Of a DNA stretch of 34,800 nt, positions 5,476-34,617 are shown in pieces. Every line of letters starts with the position of its first letter. Position 1 is the first letter of the stretch. The notes under the pieces are model-generated. The model was not told the origin of the DNA. It saw nothing but the letters and a program-made list of their open reading frames with translations, and did no database searches. The position numbers were made by a program, and so were the translations under genes. The DNA is taken from sequence record SRR31156797_7476; one strand, 5' to 3'.

Positions 5476-6186
5476 ATGCCGATTAAAAAAATTATAAAAC
5501 GTCTTTTTCCATCTAGACAGCCGGCGCATCCCGCCATCGTTGCAAATAATCTTATCAGCGTTGCCTCGGACAAGGATTTACCTGTCCGGGACTGTGAATT
5601 TGTGGTGTTTGACACCGAGTTGACCGGTCTGAACCAGCGCAAGGATGAAATTATCGCCATCGGTGCCGTTCGCATAAAGAAAATGAGGATTTGTTGTGAT
5701 GAAACCTATTACGCACTGATCAAGCCGCGGGGAAAGCTCCATACGCCCAGCACCCTCATCCATCGGATTACACCCGGCCAACTGCAGGGAGCCGAGCCCA
5801 TAAACGATGTTTTGCCCCGTTTTATTGATTTTTGCGGCGGAGCTTTTCTGGTGGGCCATCACGTGTCTCTGGATCTGAACTTTGTCAATCGCGCATGTGA
5901 GAATTACCTGGGCGGCGTCATCCGGAGTTCAAGCCTGGATACCATGCGGCTTGCCATGGCTTACAAGGCATCCTTAAACGGCCCCTATTTTGATCATCAC
6001 GAAAAACGGAATTCTTACAGACTATCATTTTTAAGCGAAGAATTTCATCTCCCCAAGTTCGAGGAACACAATGCGCTTCAGGATGCTTTCCAGACCGCCT
6101 ATCTCTTCATATACCTGATCCATAAAATGGGGCTCGGAAATACCGGGACAGTGAATGATTACATGAAGGTTGGGGGAGGGCGGTAA
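5476..6186 (+). CDS. DEDDh 3'-5' exonuclease (DnaQ-like), usual partner of DUF294 proteins
   Basis: ExoI FDTELTG, ExoII GHHVSLD and ExoIII HNALQD all intact. Confidence 0.9.
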   Translation: MPIKKIIKRLFPSRQPAHPAIVANNLISVASDKDLPVRDCEFVVFDTELTGLNQRKDEIIAIGAVRIKKMRICCDETYYALIKPRGKLHTPSTLIHRITPGQLQGAEPINDVLPRFIDFCGGAFLVGHHVSLDLNFVNRACENYLGGVIRSSSLDTMRLAMAYKASLNGPYFDHHEKRNSYRLSFLSEEFHLPKFEEHNALQDAFQTAYLFIYLIHKMGLGNTGTVNDYMKVGGGR

Positions 6187-26028: not shown

Positions 26029-27339
26029 ATGGAAAAGACCCTTTCCCGGGACCGGCTAATTATTTTCGGGCGATATCCCGTGCCCGGAAAAACCAAGACC
26101 CGCCTGATCCCCGCCCTGGGACCGGTCGGCGCGGCCGATCTTCAACGCCGCTTGACGGAAAAAACGTTTCTTTCAGCGACCGAATTTGCGGCCCGTTATA
26201 AAACCACCATTGAATGCTGTTTTGAAGGGGGTACGCCCCAAAAGATAAACCGCTGGCTCGGTTCCATTCCCAGGTTATCTTTTCAGCATGCAGGTGACTT
26301 GGGTCAACGAATGCGCTTTGCCCTGTTTGACGCCTTGAATGAAGGAAGCAATCGGGTGGTTTTGGTGGGGACGGACATTCCGGGGGTAAACGCGGAAATT
26401 CTGGCGCAAGCCTTTGGTGCACTGCTGGAACACGATATTGTTCTGGGACCCAGCACGGACGGGGGATATTGGCTTATGGGTTTGAAACGGCCCATTGACC
26501 TTTTTCAGAATATCCATTGGAGCTCACCCAAGGTTCTTGAGCAGACCCTGGCACAGGCCCGGCACATGGGGCTGACGGTCCGTCTTCTCCAATTTCTATG
26601 GGATGTGGACACTCCTGAAGACTTAGGGAGATGGCGTCTTGAAGAAAATGTACCGGAGTTTTTTTTAACGGTTGTGATACCGGCCTTTAACGAGGAAAAC
26701 CATATCCGCCGGGCCATTTTGAGTGCAACAGGCCGGGACGTGGAAGTGATTGTGGCGGATGGGGGAAGCACCGATGGCACGGTCAGTGTGGCAGAATCCC
26801 TTGGCGTGCGCGTTATCCACTCCCCTTTGGGTCGCGCCAGGCAGCAGAATTGCGGGGCCGCTACGGCAAAGGGTGAACATCTGCTCTTTCTCCATGCGGA
26901 TACCCGTCTGCCCGAAGACTATGTGATCCAGGTTTTTGAAACCCTTTTGGCACAAGGAACGGTAATGGGCGCTTTTCGTTTCAAGACGGATTTTCGCCAT
27001 CCCCTGATGCGGCTTGTGGAGTGGATGGCCCACCTGCGGGCAAAATATTTGCGGCTTCCCTATGGAGACCAGGCGATTTTCATGAAAAAGGCGATTTTTG
27101 AAAGGGCCGGTGGCTTTCCCGTTGTTCCCATCGGGGAAGACCTTTTTCTGGTACGCCATCTGGTCAAACACGAAAATGTGCAGGTGCTCATGGCAAAGGG
27201 AGCAGCCGTCACATCGGGGCGCCGATGGAAAACCATTGGGCCCCTCAAAACCACATGGATCAACCAACTCATGTTGATGGGCATGATCATGGGGATTTCC
27301 CTTCAAACCCTGTCCCGTCTTTACCGAAGGTCATTGTGA
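26029..27339 (+). CDS. Fusion of DUF2064/TIGR04282-type transferase and TIGR04283-type GT2 glycosyltransferase
   Basis: N-half: P-PGKTKTRL, Q-GDLGQRM, VGTDIP, LGPSTDGGYWL-G, WS, DVDTPEDL. C-half: VVIPAFNEE, DGGSTDGT, GRARQQN-GA, LLFLHADT, PYGDQ, EDL, TSGRRW. Confidence 0.88.
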   Translation: MEKTLSRDRLIIFGRYPVPGKTKTRLIPALGPVGAADLQRRLTEKTFLSATEFAARYKTTIECCFEGGTPQKINRWLGSIPRLSFQHAGDLGQRMRFALFDALNEGSNRVVLVGTDIPGVNAEILAQAFGALLEHDIVLGPSTDGGYWLMGLKRPIDLFQNIHWSSPKVLEQTLAQARHMGLTVRLLQFLWDVDTPEDLGRWRLEENVPEFFLTVVIPAFNEENHIRRAILSATGRDVEVIVADGGSTDGTVSVAESLGVRVIHSPLGRARQQNCGAATAKGEHLLFLHADTRLPEDYVIQVFETLLAQGTVMGAFRFKTDFRHPLMRLVEWMAHLRAKYLRLPYGDQAIFMKKAIFERAGGFPVVPIGEDLFLVRHLVKHENVQVLMAKGAAVTSGRRWKTIGPLKTTWINQLMLMGMIMGISLQTLSRLYRRSL

Positions 27340-27426
27340 TGGATTTTCTTGACTTAAAAATGATCACCGGCTTATATAATCGTAACGGTTCAGCGTTCTA
27401 ATCCTTATCAGGCAGGTGAATATTTT

Positions 27427-28137
27427 ATGAAAGCGTCCCACCCAAACAAGGAATTTGAAGTCCTTTATGAAGAACTGGGATATACATTCAGGGACCCTGC
27501 CCTGGTCCTCCAGGCATTTCGGCATTCCTCCTATGTGAATGAACAGATGGGTGCCGGCCTTGAAGACAATGAGCGCCTCGAATTCCTGGGAGATGCCGTG
27601 CTCGATCTGGCCATCAGTCATTTGCTCATGGAAAAAAACAGGGATGCCGATGAGGGGGAACTCTCCAGATTCAGATCCATGGTGGTGGATGAAGCAGGGC
27701 TTCATGATGTTGCCACAAGGCTTGAACTGGGTCGTTATTTGCTTTTGGGAAAAGGGGAAGACCAGAGTCTCGGCAGGCAAAAACCGTCTATCCTTGCGGA
27801 CGTTACCGAAGCCCTTATCGGGGCCATTTATCTGGATGGCGGATTTGATGTTGCCAAAAAGATCATTGAGAAACTCTTTTCGCCACTGTTAAAGAAGGTG
27901 CGAACGGACGATCTGGTCCAGGATTTCAAGAGCTTGCTGCAGGAATTTACCCAGCAGGCGTTCAAAAGTCTTCCAAAATACCGGCTTACGGAAGAAACCG
28001 GGCCTGCACACGACAAGGTGTTTCGTATCGCTTTGGCTGTTAACGGCATGGTTTTGGCCGAGGGGATGGGAAAAAGCAAGAAAGAGGCTGAACAGCATGC
28101 GGCAAAGGAGGCGTTTTTGCGCCTGAAAGAAGATTGA
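27427..28137 (+). CDS. rnc: Ribonuclease III
   Basis: Signature NERLEFLGDAVL, EALIGAIYLDGG, dsRBD KS-LQE..GPAHDK-F..GKSKKEAEQ-AA. Confidence 0.98.
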   Translation: MKASHPNKEFEVLYEELGYTFRDPALVLQAFRHSSYVNEQMGAGLEDNERLEFLGDAVLDLAISHLLMEKNRDADEGELSRFRSMVVDEAGLHDVATRLELGRYLLLGKGEDQSLGRQKPSILADVTEALIGAIYLDGGFDVAKKIIEKLFSPLLKKVRTDDLVQDFKSLLQEFTQQAFKSLPKYRLTEETGPAHDKVFRIALAVNGMVLAEGMGKSKKEAEQHAAKEAFLRLKED

Positions 28138-29153
28138 GACCCCTGATTATCCCCATATTTATTTCCCATGCCGGATGTCCCCACAGATGCCTTTTCTGCG
28201 ACCAGGAAAAGATTTCCGCCCAACCATGTCATTCAATTGGCCCTCAACAGGTGTGCGAAACGCTGGATACGGCCATAGGTGCCAAAAGGTTTGATCCGAG
28301 CCGAAATACCGAGCTGGCCTTTTATGGCGGAACATTTACCGGGCTTAAAATAGCCCGCATGGAATCCCTGCTGAAAGCGGCGGCACCGTATGTGCATTCC
28401 GGAATGGTGAAATCCATCAGGATTTCAACGCGTCCCGATTCGCTGGATGAGCAACGCCTGGCGCTTTTGAAGGCATATGGTGTTACCACGGTGGAATTGG
28501 GCGCTCAATCCATGAATGACCGGGTCCTGGCACTTTCTCAAAGGGGTCATGCGGCCGGGGACACCGTAGCAGCGGTTCGAATGTTAAAGGAACACGGCTT
28601 CAAGGTGGGTATTCAGCTAATGCCGGGCCTTCCCGGCGATTCAAGTGAAGAATTCTTCGCCACCACCCGAAAGGTGCTGGCCCTAAAACCCCATATGGTG
28701 CGGCTGTATCCCGCCCTGGTGATAAAAGGGACCGGACTGGCCCGAATGTATGGGGAGGGGTCGTATCGACCCTTTTCTCTTAAGGAAGCCGTAGAGCTAT
28801 GTGTGGAAAGTGTCATTTTGCTTGAGGGAAATGGGATCCCGGTGATCAGGATCGGTCTTATGAGTTCGCCGTCGCTTCTGGATGAGGATCGCATCGTAGC
28901 AGGACCCTGGCACCCCGCCTTTGGATTTTTGGTCCGCTCGGCCATTCATTTCAGAGGCATTGCCCCAGATTTGCCGGTCCCCGGCGGGGCCCCATTGATC
29001 AAAATTTATGCCCCAATGCGGGAAATATCAATGGTAAGGGGCTATAAAAACAGGGGAATCAAGAAAATTGAACAAGAAACAGGGGCAAAGGTCATCTGTG
29101 TTGTGCCGGATGACACCGTTCCTCTGGGAAGGATTCGGTTAGAGAAGATATGA
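28134..29153 (+). CDS. Elp3/YhcC-like radical SAM protein
   Basis: IIPIFI-H-GCPHRCLFC, AFYGGTFT, STRPD, VELGAQS, QLMPGLPG, GPWHPAF. The TTG start overlaps the rnc stop and the stop overlaps the era start. Confidence 0.88.
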   Translation: MRPLIIPIFISHAGCPHRCLFCDQEKISAQPCHSIGPQQVCETLDTAIGAKRFDPSRNTELAFYGGTFTGLKIARMESLLKAAAPYVHSGMVKSIRISTRPDSLDEQRLALLKAYGVTTVELGAQSMNDRVLALSQRGHAAGDTVAAVRMLKEHGFKVGIQLMPGLPGDSSEEFFATTRKVLALKPHMVRLYPALVIKGTGLARMYGEGSYRPFSLKEAVELCVESVILLEGNGIPVIRIGLMSSPSLLDEDRIVAGPWHPAFGFLVRSAIHFRGIAPDLPVPGGAPLIKIYAPMREISMVRGYKNRGIKKIEQETGAKVICVVPDDTVPLGRIRLEKI

Positions 29154-30034
29154 GTTTTAAATCGGGTTTTATCGGCATTATCGGTCCACCCAACGTGGGT
29201 AAGTCGACCTTGTTAAACCGCATCATCGGGACGAAACTTGCCATTGTATCCCCCAAGCCGCAAACCACGAGAAACCGAATCCTGGGCGTTTTTCACCAGG
29301 ATGACTGCCAGATGGTCTTCATGGACACGCCGGGGATTCACCGAACACGGACGGCGCTTCACAAATCAATGGTTGATGCCGCTTTTGCCGCCTTTCATGA
29401 AGTGGACATTATTCTGATGATGATTCAAGCGGGTGCCCGTGAGGATCCCGCCGTTCCATCCATCATCAATGGTTTGAAATCAATTGAAAAACCCTTGTTT
29501 TTGGCCGTTAATAAAATTGATAAGGTTGAAAAAGAAAGGATTCTCCCGATTTTAGGGGATTATGGGGAAAGATTTCCCTTTGATGCCATGATTCCCATCT
29601 CAGCGCTCAAGGGCCATGGCGTGGATGCATTACTGCGCCAATTGAAATTGCGCTTGAAACCGGGGCCTGCGTTTTTTCCTTCGGATATGAACACCGATCA
29701 ATCGGAGGCGTTCATGGTTTCTGAAATTATTCGGGAGAAAATTTATCAATATCTCAGTCAGGAACTCCCCTATTCATGTGCCGTAACCGTTTTTCAGATT
29801 GAAGATGTGCCTGAGAAAAATCTGGTATCCATTGGGGCCGGAATCCATGTTGAAACCGAATCCCAAAAAGGTATCTTCATAGGCCGTGGCGGGAAGATGA
29901 TCAGAAACATTGGTCGTTCCGCGAGGCTTGAGTTGGAAGCGTTTTTCCAAGCAAGGGTCTATCTTGACCTGGCGGTACGTCTTGAGAAAAACTGGAGCAA
30001 AGACACCCGTGCTTTGAAACGGTTGGGATATTGA
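29150..30034 (+). CDS. era: GTPase Era
   Basis: FKSGFI-IIGPPNVGKSTL, PQTTRNRI, DTPG, NKID, ISALKG, EIIREK, ELPYS, KH domain IG-GG, LGY end. Confidence 0.98.
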   Translation: MSFKSGFIGIIGPPNVGKSTLLNRIIGTKLAIVSPKPQTTRNRILGVFHQDDCQMVFMDTPGIHRTRTALHKSMVDAAFAAFHEVDIILMMIQAGAREDPAVPSIINGLKSIEKPLFLAVNKIDKVEKERILPILGDYGERFPFDAMIPISALKGHGVDALLRQLKLRLKPGPAFFPSDMNTDQSEAFMVSEIIREKIYQYLSQELPYSCAVTVFQIEDVPEKNLVSIGAGIHVETESQKGIFIGRGGKMIRNIGRSARLELEAFFQARVYLDLAVRLEKNWSKDTRALKRLGY

Positions 30035-30061
30035 GGCCGGATTGCAGATTTTGGGAGACAT

Positions 30062-30094
30062 AAAAAAACCAACCCCGCAAGGCGAGGTTGGTTT
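30062..30094 (-). terminator. Intrinsic terminator, best on the minus strand and probably bidirectional
   Basis: Minus RNA AAACCAACCUCGC-CUU-GCGGGGUUGGUUU forms a 13-bp stem with one G-U pair and ends in a U7 run. On the plus strand the same pair is a C-A mismatch and the tail is UUUCUU. Confidence 0.85.
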
Positions 30095-30131
30095 CTTAGG
30101 AGGAAAGAGTAATTTTAAACTCTATATGACC
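30062..30131 (-). ncRNA. Predicted sigma54-dependent small RNA (~70 nt) with an anti-Shine-Dalgarno segment
   Basis: Lies between a -24/-12 promoter and a terminator and contains no ORF. Sequence: GGUCAUAUAGAGUUUAAAAUUACUCUUUCCUCCUAAGAAACCAACCUCGCCUUGCGGGGUUGGUUUUUUU. The 5' end is inferred from promoter geometry. Confidence 0.72.
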
Positions 30132-30141
30132 ATTGCTATAC

Positions 30142-30157
30142 TGCAATTAGCTTGCCA
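30142..30157 (-). promoter_or_regulatory. Sigma54 (-24/-12) promoter
   Basis: TGGCAAGCTAATTGCA: GG-N10-GC with both TGGCA and TTGCA elements. Confidence 0.85.
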
Positions 30158-30185
30158 AAAAAACCACAGGCTGTCAAATTTTCCA

Positions 30186-30198
30186 TAACCTATTGTTT
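30186..30198 (-). promoter_or_regulatory. IHF-like site
   Basis: AAACAATAGGTTA versus WATCAANNNNTTR (one mismatch), lying between the promoter and the enhancer-like sites. Confidence 0.45.
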
Positions 30199-30257
30199 TT
30201 TATGGGGTGAATTGGGGTTGACCATCTTTTTTAGTTTTATGACGGAAGACCGAAATA

Positions 30258-30273
30258 GTACAATATTTTGTAC
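30258..30273. promoter_or_regulatory. Putative enhancer (UAS) 1
   Basis: Palindrome GTACAA-tatt-TTGTAC centred about 134 bp upstream of the predicted start. Confidence 0.65.
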
Positions 30274-30334
30274 CAAAAATGCGCCTTAAAAAGCTTTACA
30301 GCTGCAAAACATTGAAATATTTAATGATTATCGA

Positions 30335-30350
30335 GTACAAGACCTTTTAC
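30335..30350. promoter_or_regulatory. Putative enhancer (UAS) 2
   Basis: GTACAA-gacc-TTTTAC, one mismatch to the UAS 1 palindrome, same flanks (a...ca), 77 bp away. Confidence 0.55.
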
Positions 30351-30352
30351 CA

Positions 30353-31717
30353 TTATAGGATGATGTTGTACTTTTTCATTTTGTGCTGAATCAGGCTTTT
30401 GGTTATCCCCAGGCTTTTGGCTGCGTGGGACTGAACATTGTTGGATTGGGCCAGGGCTCTTCGAACAAGCCTTTCTTCTATCTCTTCCATGGCTTTGGCC
30501 AGGGGGATATGGGCAGGGACAAATCGCTCCACATCGAATTCGGTTTCCGTGTCCACGAGTGTTTTCGGTAGATCATCCAGAGTGATAACACCGTCCGTAT
30601 GCAGCACCATGGCCCTTTCAATAACATTCTCCAATTCCCTGACGTTTCCCGGCCATGGGTGTGTGTAAAGCGCTTTCCATACTTCAGGGCGTAGCTCGAT
30701 TTTCTTTTGGCTATCCCCATCTTGAAATTTCTCAATGAAATGTTTTACGAGTAGCGGGATATCGTCTGTGCGCTCCTGAAGTGACGGTGCGTCGACGTGT
30801 ATCACATTCAGACGGTAGTAGAGGTCTTCACGAAATACCCCTTTTGCCACGTCCTCTTTGATGTTTCGATTTGAAGCTGAAAGGACGCGAACATCCACTT
30901 TGATGGTTCGGGTTCCCCCCACCCGTTCAAGCTCCATTTCCTGGAGGACCCGGAGGAGTTTAACCTGAAGGGCCGGCGGCATTTCCCCCACTTCGTCGAG
31001 AAAGATGGTACCCCCGTCCGCCAATTCAAATCGTCCTTTTTTCATGGCGATGGCCCCTGTAAACGCACCTTTTTCGTGCCCGAACAGTTCGCTGGCCAGA
31101 AGTGTTTCCGTGAGCGCCCCGCAGTTGATGGAAATGAGCGGTCTTTCTTTTCGGGGCCCCTGGTAGTGAATGGCTTTGGCAATGAGTTCTTTTCCGGTGC
31201 CCGATGGGCCGGTAATGAGAACCGACGCCTTGGAACTGGAGACCTTGTCGATGAGGTCATACACTTTCATCATCGGCTTACTTTTGCCCACCATATTGCC
31301 ATATCTGAAGCGATCGGAAAGGGCTTCCGCCAGCAGTCTGTTATCTTTCAACAGCCGGTGGTTCTCCATTGCCTTTTTTACCGTCAGCTTGAGCTTCTCA
31401 TTTTCAAATGGTTTCTGAATGTAATCATAGGCATGTTTTTTCATGGCCTCAACCGCCATTTCAATGGTTCCAAAGGCGGTCATCATGATGATGGGGATTT
31501 CCGGATTGATTTTTTTGCAAGTCTCAAGCAGTTCCATACCGCTCATGCCCGGCATTTTCATATCCGTGATGATCAGGTCGAGATCGGCTTCACGAAGGAT
31601 GCTGACAGCCATTTTGGCATCCCTGGCCGTTACGATTTCATACCCTTCAGCACCCAGAAGTGCTTCAAGCACAACGAGATAGTTTTTTTCATCATCAACA
31701 ATCAGGATGGTTTCCAT
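30353..31717 (-). CDS. NtrC-family sigma54-dependent response regulator (REC-AAA+-HTH)
   Basis: ILIVDDE, ITDMKMPGM, MTAFG, KPF; GPSGTGKE, SELFGHEKGAFTGA, FLDE, FREDLYYRL, WPGNVREL; Fis-type HTH. Start ATG 31717 with GGGAG RBS. Confidence 0.96.
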   Translation of the reverse strand: METILIVDDEKNYLVVLEALLGAEGYEIVTARDAKMAVSILREADLDLIITDMKMPGMSGMELLETCKKINPEIPIIMMTAFGTIEMAVEAMKKHAYDYIQKPFENEKLKLTVKKAMENHRLLKDNRLLAEALSDRFRYGNMVGKSKPMMKVYDLIDKVSSSKASVLITGPSGTGKELIAKAIHYQGPRKERPLISINCGALTETLLASELFGHEKGAFTGAIAMKKGRFELADGGTIFLDEVGEMPPALQVKLLRVLQEMELERVGGTRTIKVDVRVLSASNRNIKEDVAKGVFREDLYYRLNVIHVDAPSLQERTDDIPLLVKHFIEKFQDGDSQKKIELRPEVWKALYTHPWPGNVRELENVIERAMVLHTDGVITLDDLPKTLVDTETEFDVERFVPAHIPLAKAMEEIEERLVRRALAQSNNVQSHAAKSLGITKSLIQHKMKKYNIIL

Positions 31718-31748
31718 ATTTTTTGACTCCCTGAACAAAGAATCCGGA

Positions 31749-33194
31749 TTATCCCTTCGGTAGCCGAATAAGAACTCTGGTTCCCGTTTTTTCGGCATCG
31801 GATTCTTCATGATGGTTCTCGATCCATATGCCGCCCTTGTGGCCTTCGATGATATTGCGGACAATGGAAAGACCCAGGCCGCTTCCCTTGTCTTTGGTGC
31901 TGAAAAAAGGATCGAAGATCTTTTTCAAGTCTTTTTCACGAATGCCGCCCCCGTTATCTTCAATGATCACACGGTAATCATCTTTTTCTTGGGATACGCT
32001 GACTGAAAGGGTTCCGGCGTTTTCCATTGCTTGAATGGCGTTCATGAAAATATTTAGAAAAGAGCGGTAGAGCAAATGGGGATCTGCCCTGAGCGGCATG
32101 GGCTGATGGGACAATTTGTCCTCGAGTGAAATATTTTTGGTCTTAAGTTCCGCTTGTAAAAATTGTATGTTTTTGTTCAAGATTTCATCCAGATCACAGT
32201 TCTGAAAATGAGGTTCTTGCGGTCGGGCGAAGTCGAGGAATTCCGTAACAATATTGTTAAGCCGACTGGATTCTTCAACAATCAGGCCGGAGAGCTTGGC
32301 CTGTGATTTGTTGTCGGTCGACATGCTGCCCATCAGCTCGGCGGTGCTCCGAATGATTCCAAGCGGGTTTCTGATTTCATGGGATACGCCGGCAATCATC
32401 TCTCCCAGAGCCGCAAGCCGTTCCGACTGATTGAGCTGTGTTTCCAGCTCTCGTTGCTCCCTGGCTCTTTCAGCAATGGTTTTTTCCGCTTTGTGTACGA
32501 TCAGAAGAAGCGCCACAAAAATCATGCCCATGATCAGGATTGACAGACCGAAAATCAGATACTGAAATCGAACCAGGGATTCATATTCCTGCGTAAGGTC
32601 CTGTATCAATTCAAAGACGCCCAAAACATGCCCGGTGTCCCCCAGAAAAGGCCCTGCCCCCATGAATGGAATATAGGTCCTCAGCTTTTTTTCTCCCCCC
32701 GCTCGTTGAATACCGGTGCTCCATATGCCCTCTCCACCGGATACGAGTCTGGAAGAATTCTGGCCCAGAACCGCTTTTTTGTAGCCAAGGCTCTCCCGCA
32801 CTTTTTTTCCAATAAGATCGGGATCGGTGCTATAGGCGATAACGCCCTGGTTGATATCGTACATATTGACCAGATCGATTTTAAAGCTGTGGGTGGTATT
32901 TCGGACGATTCGATCCATCAAGGCCTGCTGTCGTTTTTCCCTTAACCGCATTTTTCCGAACTTTTGCGTGACGGGCAATACAAAATTTTGAAATACCTGG
33001 TGATTCAGGTTTTCACCCAGCAGCAGGGCGTAGGTTTCATGACTTTTCATGAGGATGTCTTTGGCACGTTGCGAAATGACCATGGAAAAGGGCAAACTGA
33101 ATATGATAAGAACAACAAAACTGGCATAGGCGAAAAACTTAACGAGCCTGAATTGTTTCCCCTTTGTTTCAGTTTTTTTATTTGGAAGCGGCAT
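31749..33194 (-). CDS. Membrane sensor histidine kinase (2 TM, periplasmic domain), cognate to the downstream regulator
   Basis: Two TM segments, H-box SHEIRNPL, N-box NIFMNA, DNGGGI, FDPFFSTK, GSGLGL. Start uncertain (33194, 33209 or 33281). Confidence 0.93.
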   Translation of the reverse strand: MPLPNKKTETKGKQFRLVKFFAYASFVVLIIFSLPFSMVISQRAKDILMKSHETYALLLGENLNHQVFQNFVLPVTQKFGKMRLREKRQQALMDRIVRNTTHSFKIDLVNMYDINQGVIAYSTDPDLIGKKVRESLGYKKAVLGQNSSRLVSGGEGIWSTGIQRAGGEKKLRTYIPFMGAGPFLGDTGHVLGVFELIQDLTQEYESLVRFQYLIFGLSILIMGMIFVALLLIVHKAEKTIAERAREQRELETQLNQSERLAALGEMIAGVSHEIRNPLGIIRSTAELMGSMSTDNKSQAKLSGLIVEESSRLNNIVTEFLDFARPQEPHFQNCDLDEILNKNIQFLQAELKTKNISLEDKLSHQPMPLRADPHLLYRSFLNIFMNAIQAMENAGTLSVSVSQEKDDYRVIIEDNGGGIREKDLKKIFDPFFSTKDKGSGLGLSIVRNIIEGHKGGIWIENHHEESDAEKTGTRVLIRLPKG

Positions 33195-33327
33195 CTTTTC
33201 CTTATACATAGGGTCGGCAGAGCCCGTTTCTTTTCTGTCCACATTCTTGCCGGGAAATAAAATTTCTGGTATTTTAAGCATTCGGACGGATCGTAGTCAA
33301 CAAGTAGGTATCAGAAAAGGCATCCAT

Positions 33328-34617
33328 ATGACAGCCCGAAATTTACGAGACCTCCCTTTCATGCTTTACGCAGACCCTGAAGGGAGGATTTATGAGCATC
33401 CATATCTCAGAATGGCCGGATTTTCCGGATCAAAGCACTCTCTGGTGGAACCGGAAGACCTGGTGATCATGCCGGAATTCAGCAAGCTCTTTTATATCCC
33501 CTCCTGTCCACCTCTGGGTCTTGACCCCCATACGGGACGACTGAAAACCGTTTATGAAATGGATGTGGAAGGGATTTCCACCCCCTGCCATGCGGTCGCC
33601 GTTTTTCTTGAACCGGGATTTGTCAGAACCCATCTTCCCGCGGCGGATTACAGTGAGAAATCCTTTGTGTTGCCGTCATGGGCCTATGGGGCCGTCGGCT
33701 TCAGGAACGACCAGTATTGGGCTGCGGCATTTGAGGTGGAGTATAATGAGCGATGGGATCCCCGTCATTATGACGACCGGGAACTGCTCCCGGCCATTTC
33801 CGATTTCAAGGAAAATAATTCAGGCGGGCCACTTGTCAACCATTTGACGACTTGCGCAACGGAAAACCATTGTTTTGCCGCAAAAAATCTATTCCTGAAA
33901 AGATGGGAAGCCCCACTGCCGGTCAGTCAAAAATGTAATGCCGCCTGCCTGGGCTGCCTTTCCCTTCAGCCGGGTGCTTCCTTTGAAGCGTCCCATGATA
34001 GGATCAGGTTCACCCCTTCAATGGATGAAATTGTGAATCTGGCCGTGGCACATTTAAACCATGCCCCTGAGGCCATTGTGAGTTTCGGGCAGGGTTGTGA
34101 GGGGGAACCTCTCACGGAATATGGGTTGATTGCGGATAGCATCAAGGAAATTCGAAGACAGACCCGAAACGGTACCATCAACCTGAATACCAACGGCAGT
34201 TTTCCCGACCGGATTCGAAAGATTGCGGAAAGCGGGCTGGATTCCATCCGCATCAGCTTGAACAGTGCCAGGCCGGATTTTTATGGTGCCTATTATCGAC
34301 CCAAAGCCTATGGATTTAATGACGTCATTGACGCCATCGCTTTGTCACGGAAGCTGGGGATGTATACCATGTTGAACTATCTGGTTTTTCCCGGCATTTC
34401 CGACCAGGCGGAAGAGATGGAGGCTTTGACGGCGTTGATTTCCAAAACCGGCGTAAACTTCCTCCATTTGAAAAACCTCTGTATTGACCCGGCCTTTTAT
34501 CTGGAAAATATGCCTGTAACCGGTGGTAAATCCATCGGAATGCGAAAAATGGCGGATCGTCTGAAGGAACGTTTCCCAGACCTGGAGTTGGGCTATTTTA
34601 ATCAGCCCGTTCGGTAA
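33328..34617 (+). CDS. Radical SAM protein of unknown function
   Basis: CNAACLGC motif, SFGQGCEGEP, NLNTNGS, DSIRISLNS; long N-terminal extension. Start set at ATG 33328. Confidence 0.88.
   Translation: MTARNLRDLPFMLYADPEGRIYEHPYLRMAGFSGSKHSLVEPEDLVIMPEFSKLFYIPSCPPLGLDPHTGRLKTVYEMDVEGISTPCHAVAVFLEPGFVRTHLPAADYSEKSFVLPSWAYGAVGFRNDQYWAAAFEVEYNERWDPRHYDDRELLPAISDFKENNSGGPLVNHLTTCATENHCFAAKNLFLKRWEAPLPVSQKCNAACLGCLSLQPGASFEASHDRIRFTPSMDEIVNLAVAHLNHAPEAIVSFGQGCEGEPLTEYGLIADSIKEIRRQTRNGTINLNTNGSFPDRIRKIAESGLDSIRISLNSARPDFYGAYYRPKAYGFNDVIDAIALSRKLGMYTMLNYLVFPGISDQAEEMEALTALISKTGVNFLHLKNLCIDPAFYLENMPVTGGKSIGMRKMADRLKERFPDLELGYFNQPVR

Follow-up and report, generated by a model that had tools for sequence, protein, structure and literature searches.

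The stretch of DNA analysed here (34,800 nucleotides (nt) from sequence record SRR31156797_7476), referred to throughout as the window, carries on its minus strand a gene for a sensor histidine kinase, followed by a gene for an NtrC-family response regulator and, in the gap that separates the latter from the convergent era gene, two palindromes, an IHF-like site, a sigma-54 promoter and a putative small RNA gene ending in an intrinsic terminator (Table 1). An initial annotation of the window had proposed this arrangement, and each of its elements, i.e., the palindromes, the IHF-like site, the TGGCA-N6-TTGCA promoter and the hairpin with its U-run, lies on the minus strand exactly where it had been placed; the next gene is indeed a convergent era, ending at 30034 and coding for a protein with MMR_HSR1 and KH_2 domains. 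On the sequence evidence set out below, the locus likely encodes a trans-acting small RNA of ~65 nt that is independently transcribed, serves as the dedicated output of the upstream two-component system and silences porins. Taken separately, it appears highly probable that the small RNA is real, sigma-54-dependent and controlled by the adjacent regulator, and porin mRNAs are put forward with moderate confidence as its main direct targets.

Table 1 Features of the kinase, regulator and small RNA locus in the window, and lipoprotein genes from other genomes discussed in the text
Feature	Position	Strand	Remarks
Sensor histidine kinase	31749..33281	(-)	Pfam HisKA 2.3e-15, HATPase_c 4.1e-24
NtrC-family response regulator / sigma-54 enhancer-binding protein	30353..31717	(-)	Pfam domains, GAFTGA
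Activator site 1, palindrome GTAAAAGGTCTTGTAC	30335..30350	(-)	begins 3 nt past regulator stop
Activator site 2, perfect palindrome GTACAAAATATTGTAC	30258..30273	(-)	77 base pairs from site 1
IHF-like site AAACAATAGGTTA	30186..30198	(-)	between activator sites and promoter
Sigma-54 promoter TGGCAAGCTAATTGCA	30142..30157	(-)	TGGCA-N6-TTGCA; -24 GG, -12 GC, 10 nt between
Small RNA, ~65-69 nt (predicted)	30063..30131	(-)	start 30131 from promoter geometry; 3' end within U-run
Core ACUCUUUCCUCCUAA, proposed seed	30096..30110	(-)	RNA nt 22-36
Wider pairing region (predicted)	30092-30113	(-)	RNA nt 19-40
Intrinsic terminator	30062..30094	(-)	13-base-pair stem (30094-30066), 3-nt loop, U7
era GTPase gene	29150..30034	(+)	Pfam MMR_HSR1 and KH_2; convergent; context, outside the module
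Lipoprotein genes facing the second-type RNA	L339:1239-1499, L335:1239-1499, L343:1254-1499	(-)	13-mer at ribosome-binding site

The regulator combines a receiver, a sigma-54-interacting AAA+ domain and a Fis-type helix-turn-helix (HTH), as is characteristic of the NtrC family: Response_reg (3.2e-30), Sigma54_activat (3e-70), HTH_8 (1.5e-07) and AAA_lid_14 all score above their Pfam cut-offs, and the GAFTGA loop can be read in the translated AAA+ domain. Its stop codon occupies 30355-30353 and its start is the Met codon at 31717, not the TTG of the longest open reading frame (ORF) at 31864. Compared with the NCBIfam equivalogs, it falls below the cut-off in every case (AtoC 487.8 against 714, NtrC 427.6 against 558.6, ZraR 400.7 against 760, LuxO 373.5 against 800 and GlrR 361 against 763). 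The same holds for the kinase and its best NCBIfam matches, AtoS (233.6 against 646) and ZraS (202.7 against 479). In the kinase, whose true start may be a downstream Met, a sensor region of ~170 amino acids (aa) lies between two membrane segments predicted by eye from the translation and is followed by HisKA and HATPase_c; residues 40-275 have no match in Pfam or NCBIfam, and a protein atlas gives for the sensor region only unnamed clusters and a weak sCache_3_2 lead (20%).

The evidence for an RNA gene comes mainly from relatives of this pair. With the kinase as query, a metagenome scan returned orthologous loci of 54-93% identity, 26 of them with a complete regulator gene, and the downstream layout could be judged in the 25 that have at least 450 nt past the regulator stop. 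All 25 carry TGGCA-N6-TTGC[AT], at 191-196 nt past the stop in 23 and at 251 and 308 nt in the remaining two, followed by (A)CUCUUUCCUCCUAA and then by a hairpin with a U-run. The 5' part of the RNA varies in sequence and in length (58-74 nt over 23 distinct sequences) while the core is constant, its alignment columns being invariant or at least 90% conserved, and includes the anti-Shine-Dalgarno pentamer CCUCC. A covariance model (R1) built on the alignment of these 23 sequences (A1) finds a single copy in the window, at 82.6 bits, and none in 8 loci of kinase paralogues (identity up to 48%).

A scan of genome contigs with the regulator protein gave, among the matches listed, paralogues only (identity up to 54%), with the RNA downstream in 0 of 80 loci; orthologues of up to 94% identity exist in the same genome collection, outside that list. 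An even sample of 401 genomes, drawn from the phylum of a Desulfobacteraceae metagenome-assembled genome (MAG), was searched for the promoter followed after 25-55 nt by CTCTTTCCTCCT; this strict pattern is present in 14, as opposed to 0 for the reversed control, and 4 of these have an orthologous regulator directly upstream. The family of one of these four regulator-linked genomes (Desulfobacterota; 105 genomes, hereafter the family) was then studied as a whole, and R1 finds the RNA in 92 of its members. In every family locus that was fetched, the orthologous regulator (66-94% identity) stands directly upstream of the RNA, and era and a radical-SAM gene follow in most. Conservation of promoter, CCUCC core and terminator behind orthologous regulators, which the initial annotation had set as its test, is thus seen in all the metagenome loci judged and in the large majority of the family genomes.

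The unit also duplicates. In locus L099, a tandem duplicate (5720-6102) retains a remnant of the regulator 3' end, both activator sites, the IHF-like site and the promoter, together with an intact core and a terminator with compensated changes. Similar tandem duplications of promoter and small RNA are found in G413:C4, G452:C12 and G488:C88 (L252-L254), so that some genomes hold two copies of the RNA with slightly different 5' parts.

In the window, the predicted RNA reads GGUCAUAUAGAGUUUAAAAUUACUCUUUCCUCCUAAGAAACCAACCUCGCCUUGCGGGGUUGGUUUUUUU from ~30131, its last 33 nt comprising a stem of 13 base pairs (bp), one of them U-G, and a run of seven U. The strand specificity claimed for this hairpin is borne out by its folding: the RNA strand reaches -28.6 kcal/mol with z = -5.85 (equalled by 0 of 200 shuffles), compared with z = -1.52 and a C-A mismatch on the opposite strand. 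Since U-G pairs and the U-run fit the minus strand only, the minus strand appears to be the functional one; the terminator probably also ends the convergent era transcript. A simple terminator scan of the window listed no terminator at this position. The covariation called for in the initial annotation is clear in a model-guided alignment of 30 sequences, where 96.6% of the terminator cells are paired and 9 of the 13 pairs show compensatory changes, a result that 0 of 500 shuffles match and that slid-register controls (31-57% pairing) do not approach; such an alignment is biased towards the model structure, and the compensated stems are also visible by eye in the raw loci. It replaced a MAFFT and RNAalifold consensus of the 23-sequence alignment, which was poor (-4.21 kcal/mol) because the divergent terminators were misaligned.

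Two further candidate features of the RNA were rejected. A conserved 5' hairpin (nt 9-13 with 22-26) is ruled out by eye, its register shifting or the helix missing in the shorter variants, and so is a small internal ORF, as there is no start codon (ATG, GTG or TTG frame) and the core is invariant at all positions; the ORF listing, moreover, has no frame of at least 40 aa on the minus strand across the RNA. The initial annotation did not recognise the RNA as a member of a described family, and no Rfam family matches it: Rfam 15 at gathering thresholds gives 0 matches in the window, the Qrr, GlmY/GlmZ, CrcZ and Pxr families included. When 29950-30450 was scanned by E-value, rnk_leader came out best, with 22.3 bits where 50 are required, a score owed to the terminator. 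No description of this RNA, or of any sigma-54-dependent small RNA targeting porins, was found in PMC Creative Commons papers and bioRxiv.

The link between regulator and RNA is drawn from the upstream DNA. Both activator sites follow the pattern GTAmAA-N4-TTGTAC; measured from the promoter, most orthologous loci keep site 1 at -190 to -194, and 23 of the 26 listed rows have site 2 at -113 to -117, the other three being L100 and L113, where it is shifted, and L109, where the palindrome is altered. L113 has three activator sites in steps of 77 bp. In L109, the sites read GTTACA-N4-TGTAAC and the recognition helix of the regulator HTH is ISRRMMNY in place of ITKSLIQH; this is the only regulator with a differing helix (LGISRRMMNYKMKKY, compared with LGITKSLIQHKMKKY elsewhere), a single case in which protein and DNA site co-vary. 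Palindromes at fixed positions and the joint change of site and helix in L109 suggest that the adjacent regulator controls the RNA, by binding that would take place at the palindromes; the RNA as an output of its neighbour, as proposed in the initial annotation, thereby gains support, and it is still inferred. Between sites and promoter, an A-rich element ending in CA-N4-5-GTTA can be recognized by eye at the same position in orthologous loci, the label IHF-like given to its counterpart in the window resting on what we take to be the IHF consensus. The promoter itself agrees with the sigma-54 consensus TGGCAC-N5-TTGCW, and all five related genomes that were searched score above cut-off for Sigma54_DBD.

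The predicted targets emerge from the complement of the core. Weak wrong-strand matches of R1 in G443:C73, G412:C55 and G467:C355 correspond to the antisense of the ribosome-binding site of a gene whose product (396 aa, starting MKKLFVLG...) has a signal peptide, a C-terminal Phe and a Porin_4 match of 38.5 bits (cut-off 27). With this one porin as query, homologues are found in 46 of the 105 family genomes, and a leader of the form TAGGAGGA[G/A]AGAGUA-AUG is present in 14 of the 30 porin-orthologue loci that were fetched, with a near match in 7 more. Throughout the family, the 15-mer complementary to the core, TAGGAGGARAGAGTA, occurs at 112 sites in 75 of the 105 genomes (reversed control 7), which by hand tally divide into 63 that are the RNA gene's own antisense, 46 at porin-like start codons and 3 elsewhere. 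The 46 porin sites (25 read as sequence, 21 + 4, and 21 placed by adjacency to porin-homologue matches) end at the start codon or one base into it; as to the other three, one is the ribosome-binding site of a secreted protein of 537 aa ending in Phe, and two lie off start codons. The 15-mer was absent from all 121 genomes sampled from a family that includes a Desulfovibrio MAG, an imperfect control because its base composition is probably different.

The porin-like proteins facing these sites carry a signal peptide, end in F or W, and form at least 3-4 dissimilar groups, with C-termini such as ...GVQFQITF, ...GAYWKISF, ...WQINF and ...RHMLVI(E/N)W. Several score above the Pfam cut-offs (Porin_4 at 38.5, 31.6, 35.3 and 29.3 bits, KdgM at 25 bits) and some have no Pfam family; four of the ORFs, at 91-247 aa, are short, perhaps through breaks in the assemblies.

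The predicted pairing joins the RNA segment 5'-AUUACUCUUUCCUCCUAA-3' to the mRNA segment 5'-UUAGGAGGA(A/G)AGAGUAAU-3', a duplex that would run from the Shine-Dalgarno sequence across the spacer into the first two bases of the AUG. In five genomes with a regulator 90-94% identical to that of the window, nt 19-40 of the window RNA can form 22 contiguous pairs with porin mRNA from -20 to +2, at -36 kcal/mol against a background of -12.1 +/- 4.1 over all other 66-nt windows of the loci. Outside G439 and G440, single-base differences in RNA or mRNA mostly lead to G-U wobbles, by A to G changes in the mRNA and C to U changes in the RNA of L111 and of the group G418, G419, G420, G429 and G430; mismatches arise instead in L279, L281 and L284 (U-U) and in L280 (C-C). 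G439 and G440 have UUAAUUUUUUCCUCC as RNA core and GGAGGAAGAAAUUAUG and GGAGGAAAGAAUUAUG as porin-homologue leaders, i.e., 2-3 positions have changed on both sides relative to the common pair, and 14 contiguous bp remain. A near-complement of the core, AGGAGGAAAGTGT, also coincides with the start of an ORF resembling a cold-shock protein (LAEGIVKWF...) in L186 (G343:C1, near 2025192), which could be a further target or chance.

Several observations weigh against this interpretation. Transcription of the RNA, both of its ends and any dependence on rpoN or the regulator are themselves inferred, and the genome-level counts concern MAG-quality, possibly incomplete genomes. Within the window, the promoter pattern with up to one mismatch has 5 matches against 6.2 expected (the exact form occurring only at 30142-30157), and the palindrome pattern has 2 against 0.46 expected, a number reached by 9 of 100 shuffles; for the window taken by itself, such counts can be accounted for by chance, and the case rests on conservation in relatives. 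The window contains no porin target either, since searches for the seed complement and by a duplex-energy scan returned only the antisense strand of the RNA gene itself, so that the target argument rests entirely on relatives, and the window's own organism would have to carry such a porin gene, as it presumably does. In four genomes, the 13-mer complement with up to one mismatch is not enriched (36 matches, compared with 78 in the reversed control), and plausible ribosome-binding sites accompany only 5 of the 32 non-self sites. The exact 15-mer, too, is confined to 14 of the 30 porin-orthologue loci, even if 7 others come near it. Since the porin 5' ends are homologous and their signal peptides similar, conservation of the ribosome-binding site may partly be due to descent and to selection for a strong site, and the intermolecular covariation, coming from the single lineage of G439 and G440, perhaps reflects one evolutionary event. 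Finally, the RNA is present in 92 of the 105 genomes and homologues of the porin query in 46, which makes other targets likely.

Part of this evidence would also fit a real sigma-54 RNA for which porins are not the main business, the CCUCC core serving as a general anti-Shine-Dalgarno decoy for many mRNAs or as a titrator of an RNA-binding protein, and the porin complementarity reflecting that porins have the strongest, most consensus-like ribosome-binding sites. The pentamer within the core, the unenriched 13-mer, the disparity between RNA-bearing and porin-bearing genomes and the small lipoprotein faced instead by same-core RNAs of other families in the phylum (see below) all agree with such a role, which we nevertheless consider unlikely: the pairing runs 8-13 nt past GGAGG on both sides and reaches up to 22 bp, 46 of the 49 non-self 15-mer sites are at porin-like starts and not at other highly expressed genes, the double changes in G439 and G440 preserve pairing, and the RNA is devoid of CsrA-type GGA motifs.

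The existence of a separate RNA gene can itself be questioned, as the hairpin might be a shared bidirectional terminator of era and the kinase-regulator operon, with promoter-like and palindromic motifs that are non-functional or serve autoregulation or antisense control of era. Consistent with this, the convergent era gene stops 28 nt short of the hairpin in a widespread synteny, the plus strand also forms a hairpin followed by UUUCUU, and the motif counts of the window are at chance level. However, the 15-nt core is invariant in spite of proteins diverged to ~54-70% identity and drifting flanks, the U-G pairs and runs of U7-8 are specific to the minus strand, the whole unit duplicates, and a terminator needs no sigma-54 promoter, which is conserved 60-75 nt upstream in 25 of 25 loci. 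Moreover, while era adjoins as convergent neighbour in most relatives, L162 and L163 have no era within 1.4 kb downstream and the RNA is still found behind the regulator. Taken together, these points make a mere terminator extremely improbable. Hardly more credible is an RNA that is real and mainly processed from a read-through 3' untranslated region of the regulator, its level tracking the operon irrespective of how active the regulator is. No terminator separates the regulator stop from the RNA, and small RNAs derived from 3' untranslated regions are common in other bacteria; yet promoter (-24/-12), both activator sites and IHF-like site all hold their positions in orthologous loci, which would be pointless without initiation there, and second tandem copies have a full promoter region of their own.

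Under the preferred reading, i.e., a dedicated sigma-54 small RNA acting on porin mRNAs, the membrane kinase would sense a signal, probably extracytoplasmic, and phosphorylate the NtrC-type activator, which would occupy both GTACAA-N4-TTGTAC sites and, with a DNA bend at the IHF-like site, open the sigma-54 promoter, transcription of the RNA stopping at its own terminator. The single-stranded pyrimidine-rich core (AUUACUCUUUCCUCCUAAGAAA) would then pair with the Shine-Dalgarno-to-AUG region of porin mRNAs in a duplex expected to block ribosome binding and probably to destabilise the message, with repression, i.e., less porin made, as the presumed outcome. The length of the duplex may make the chaperone Hfq unnecessary. 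A search for Hfq (PF17209) in five related, possibly incomplete genomes (G494, G499, G503, G145 and G457) gave no match in any of them, control genomes being matched; if its absence is family-wide, small RNAs there would work without it.

The order of genes around the module is the same family-wide (window 26029-34617; L082-L114 and L206-L235), with a divergent radical-SAM gene, kinase, regulator, small RNA and convergent era. Past era lie a second radical-SAM gene (Radical_SAM and Radical_SAM_C; Elp3/MnmL-like, below the cut-offs) and then an ORF at 27427-28137.

Small RNAs with sigma-54 promoters beside NtrC-type regulators are known in other phyla, i.e., GlmY with GlrK/GlrR (QseE/QseF) in Enterobacteria, Qrr with LuxO in Vibrio, CrcZ with CbrA/CbrB in Pseudomonas and Pxr in Myxococcus. 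The present locus shares with them a sigma-54 promoter with activator sites, often with IHF, and an RNA that appears to be the main output of the system, and differs in that neither sequence nor structure matches and that its regulator is below the LuxO, GlrR, AtoC, NtrC and ZraR cut-offs. Furthermore, GlmY and CrcZ sequester proteins and Qrr needs Hfq, whereas a long duplex over the ribosome-binding site is predicted here and Hfq was not found in relatives. The closest functional analogues would be the porin-silencing RNAs of Enterobacteria: like MicF, MicC, MicA, RybB, OmrA/B and MicL (Lpp), the RNA is predicted to pair at the Shine-Dalgarno sequence or start of mRNAs for abundant outer-membrane proteins, under the control of envelope-related signalling. 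In contrast to these RNAs, which depend on sigma-E or OmpR and on Hfq, it has a sigma-54 promoter with an enhancer-binding protein, no homology to them and relatives in which Hfq was not found; its predicted duplex is also much longer and near-perfect (18-22 bp), and one core fits several porin families. A pyrimidine-rich single-stranded motif directed against G-rich ribosome-binding sites, with no strict need for Hfq, recalls RsaE/RoxS of Firmicutes and RepG of Helicobacter, although in those RNAs, which do not depend on sigma-54, the motif takes the form of short C-rich loops, often more than one per RNA, as opposed to the single linear core of 15-22 nt seen here.

Nearer precedents exist in the same phylum. 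In Desulfovibrio vulgaris Hildenborough, the part of Rajeev et al. 2011 (PMC3333781) drawn on here has DVU0679 mapped to Dv_sRNA2 just downstream of its gene, with the binding motif CGTGCGTATTCGCACG (Table S7), and a sigma-54 promoter with a non-coding RNA 182 bp downstream of DVU0653; four sigma-54-dependent non-coding RNAs are listed in the portion used of Kazakov et al. 2015 (PMC4641369), and two RpoN-dependent small RNAs of strain G20 in that of Kuehl et al. 2014 (PMC4045070). As far as these portions go, the DVU0679 and DVU0653 systems resemble the present one in having a two-component sigma-54 regulator with a mapped or predicted non-coding RNA target directly downstream of its own gene, and the distance from gene to promoter (182 bp for DVU0653, ~195 nt here) is similar. 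The DVU0679 motif given there, however, is unlike the GTAmAA-N4-TTGTAC sites, these excerpts report no link of the Desulfovibrio RNAs to porins, and the promoter-plus-core pattern is present in 0 of the 121 sampled genomes of the Desulfovibrio-MAG family. The RNA is not demonstrably any of the Desulfovibrio ones, the comparison resting on the DVU0679 motif and, indirectly, on the pattern search. The novelty asserted in the initial annotation holds for the RNA itself, which is apparently undescribed, and less so for its kind, given the D. vulgaris precedents in those parts of PMC3333781 and PMC4641369; what is new is the predicted porin target of a conserved, apparently undescribed small-RNA family, the regulator-RNA architecture being already known.

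In other families of the phylum (L165-L175, in G213, G183, G325, G243, G299, G397, G349, G271, G119 and G047), a sigma-54 small RNA of a second type was observed, which shares the core (..AGAAACCAACUCUUUCCUCCUCGAAA) and retains GCCCC in its terminator loop. No enhancer-binding protein is encoded within 1.5 kb of this RNA, and 3-5 tandem direct repeats of GGCGnGATT, not palindromes, stand upstream; it matches no Rfam family, and a scan of L161-L175 returned one tRNA only. In 3 of 5 genomes with this second type, the exact 13-mer core complement is found at the ribosome-binding site of a lipoprotein of 81-86 aa that has a lipobox and an alanine-rich helix and ends in KK (Table 1), for which the Alanine_zipper family (major outer membrane lipoprotein) gives a weak match below cut-off (E ~0.1), and this suggests an Lpp/OprI-like target of the second-type RNA. 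In paralogue loci of other phyla, such as L025 (Buttiauxella), several unrelated NtrC-type regulators are likewise followed by TGGCA-N6-TTGC at 120-300 nt past the stop, without the CCUCC core.

Putting the two types together, a phylum-wide Desulfobacterota superfamily of sigma-54 small RNAs can be imagined, though only tentatively, in which a common core, CUCUUUCCUCCU, would silence abundant envelope proteins under differing enhancer-binding proteins. Activation would involve the adjacent kinase-regulator pair with its palindromes here, and an unlinked activator with tandem GGCGnGATT repeats elsewhere, the targets being several porin families in the one case and an Lpp/OprI-like small lipoprotein in the other. 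If true, this would amount to a sigma-54 envelope-homeostasis circuit without Hfq, doing the job of the sigma-E-dependent MicA, RybB and MicL in Enterobacteria.

Sulfate reducers of the Desulfobacterota and their relatives in the phylum have unusually many sigma-54 activators, most of whose outputs have not been assigned, and to our knowledge post-transcriptional regulation in this phylum is almost unexplored. The circuit proposed here is offered complete and in testable form, from the sensor and its activator through the DNA sites to the RNA with its seed and candidate targets, and is conserved across nearly the whole family; already as an annotation tool, the R1 model would add an unannotated RNA gene to ~90% of the family genomes. 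If the RNA does silence porins, it would show how small RNAs forming long duplexes can work where Hfq is missing, and would tie a two-component signal to outer-membrane permeability in organisms that cycle sulfur and carbon in sediments.

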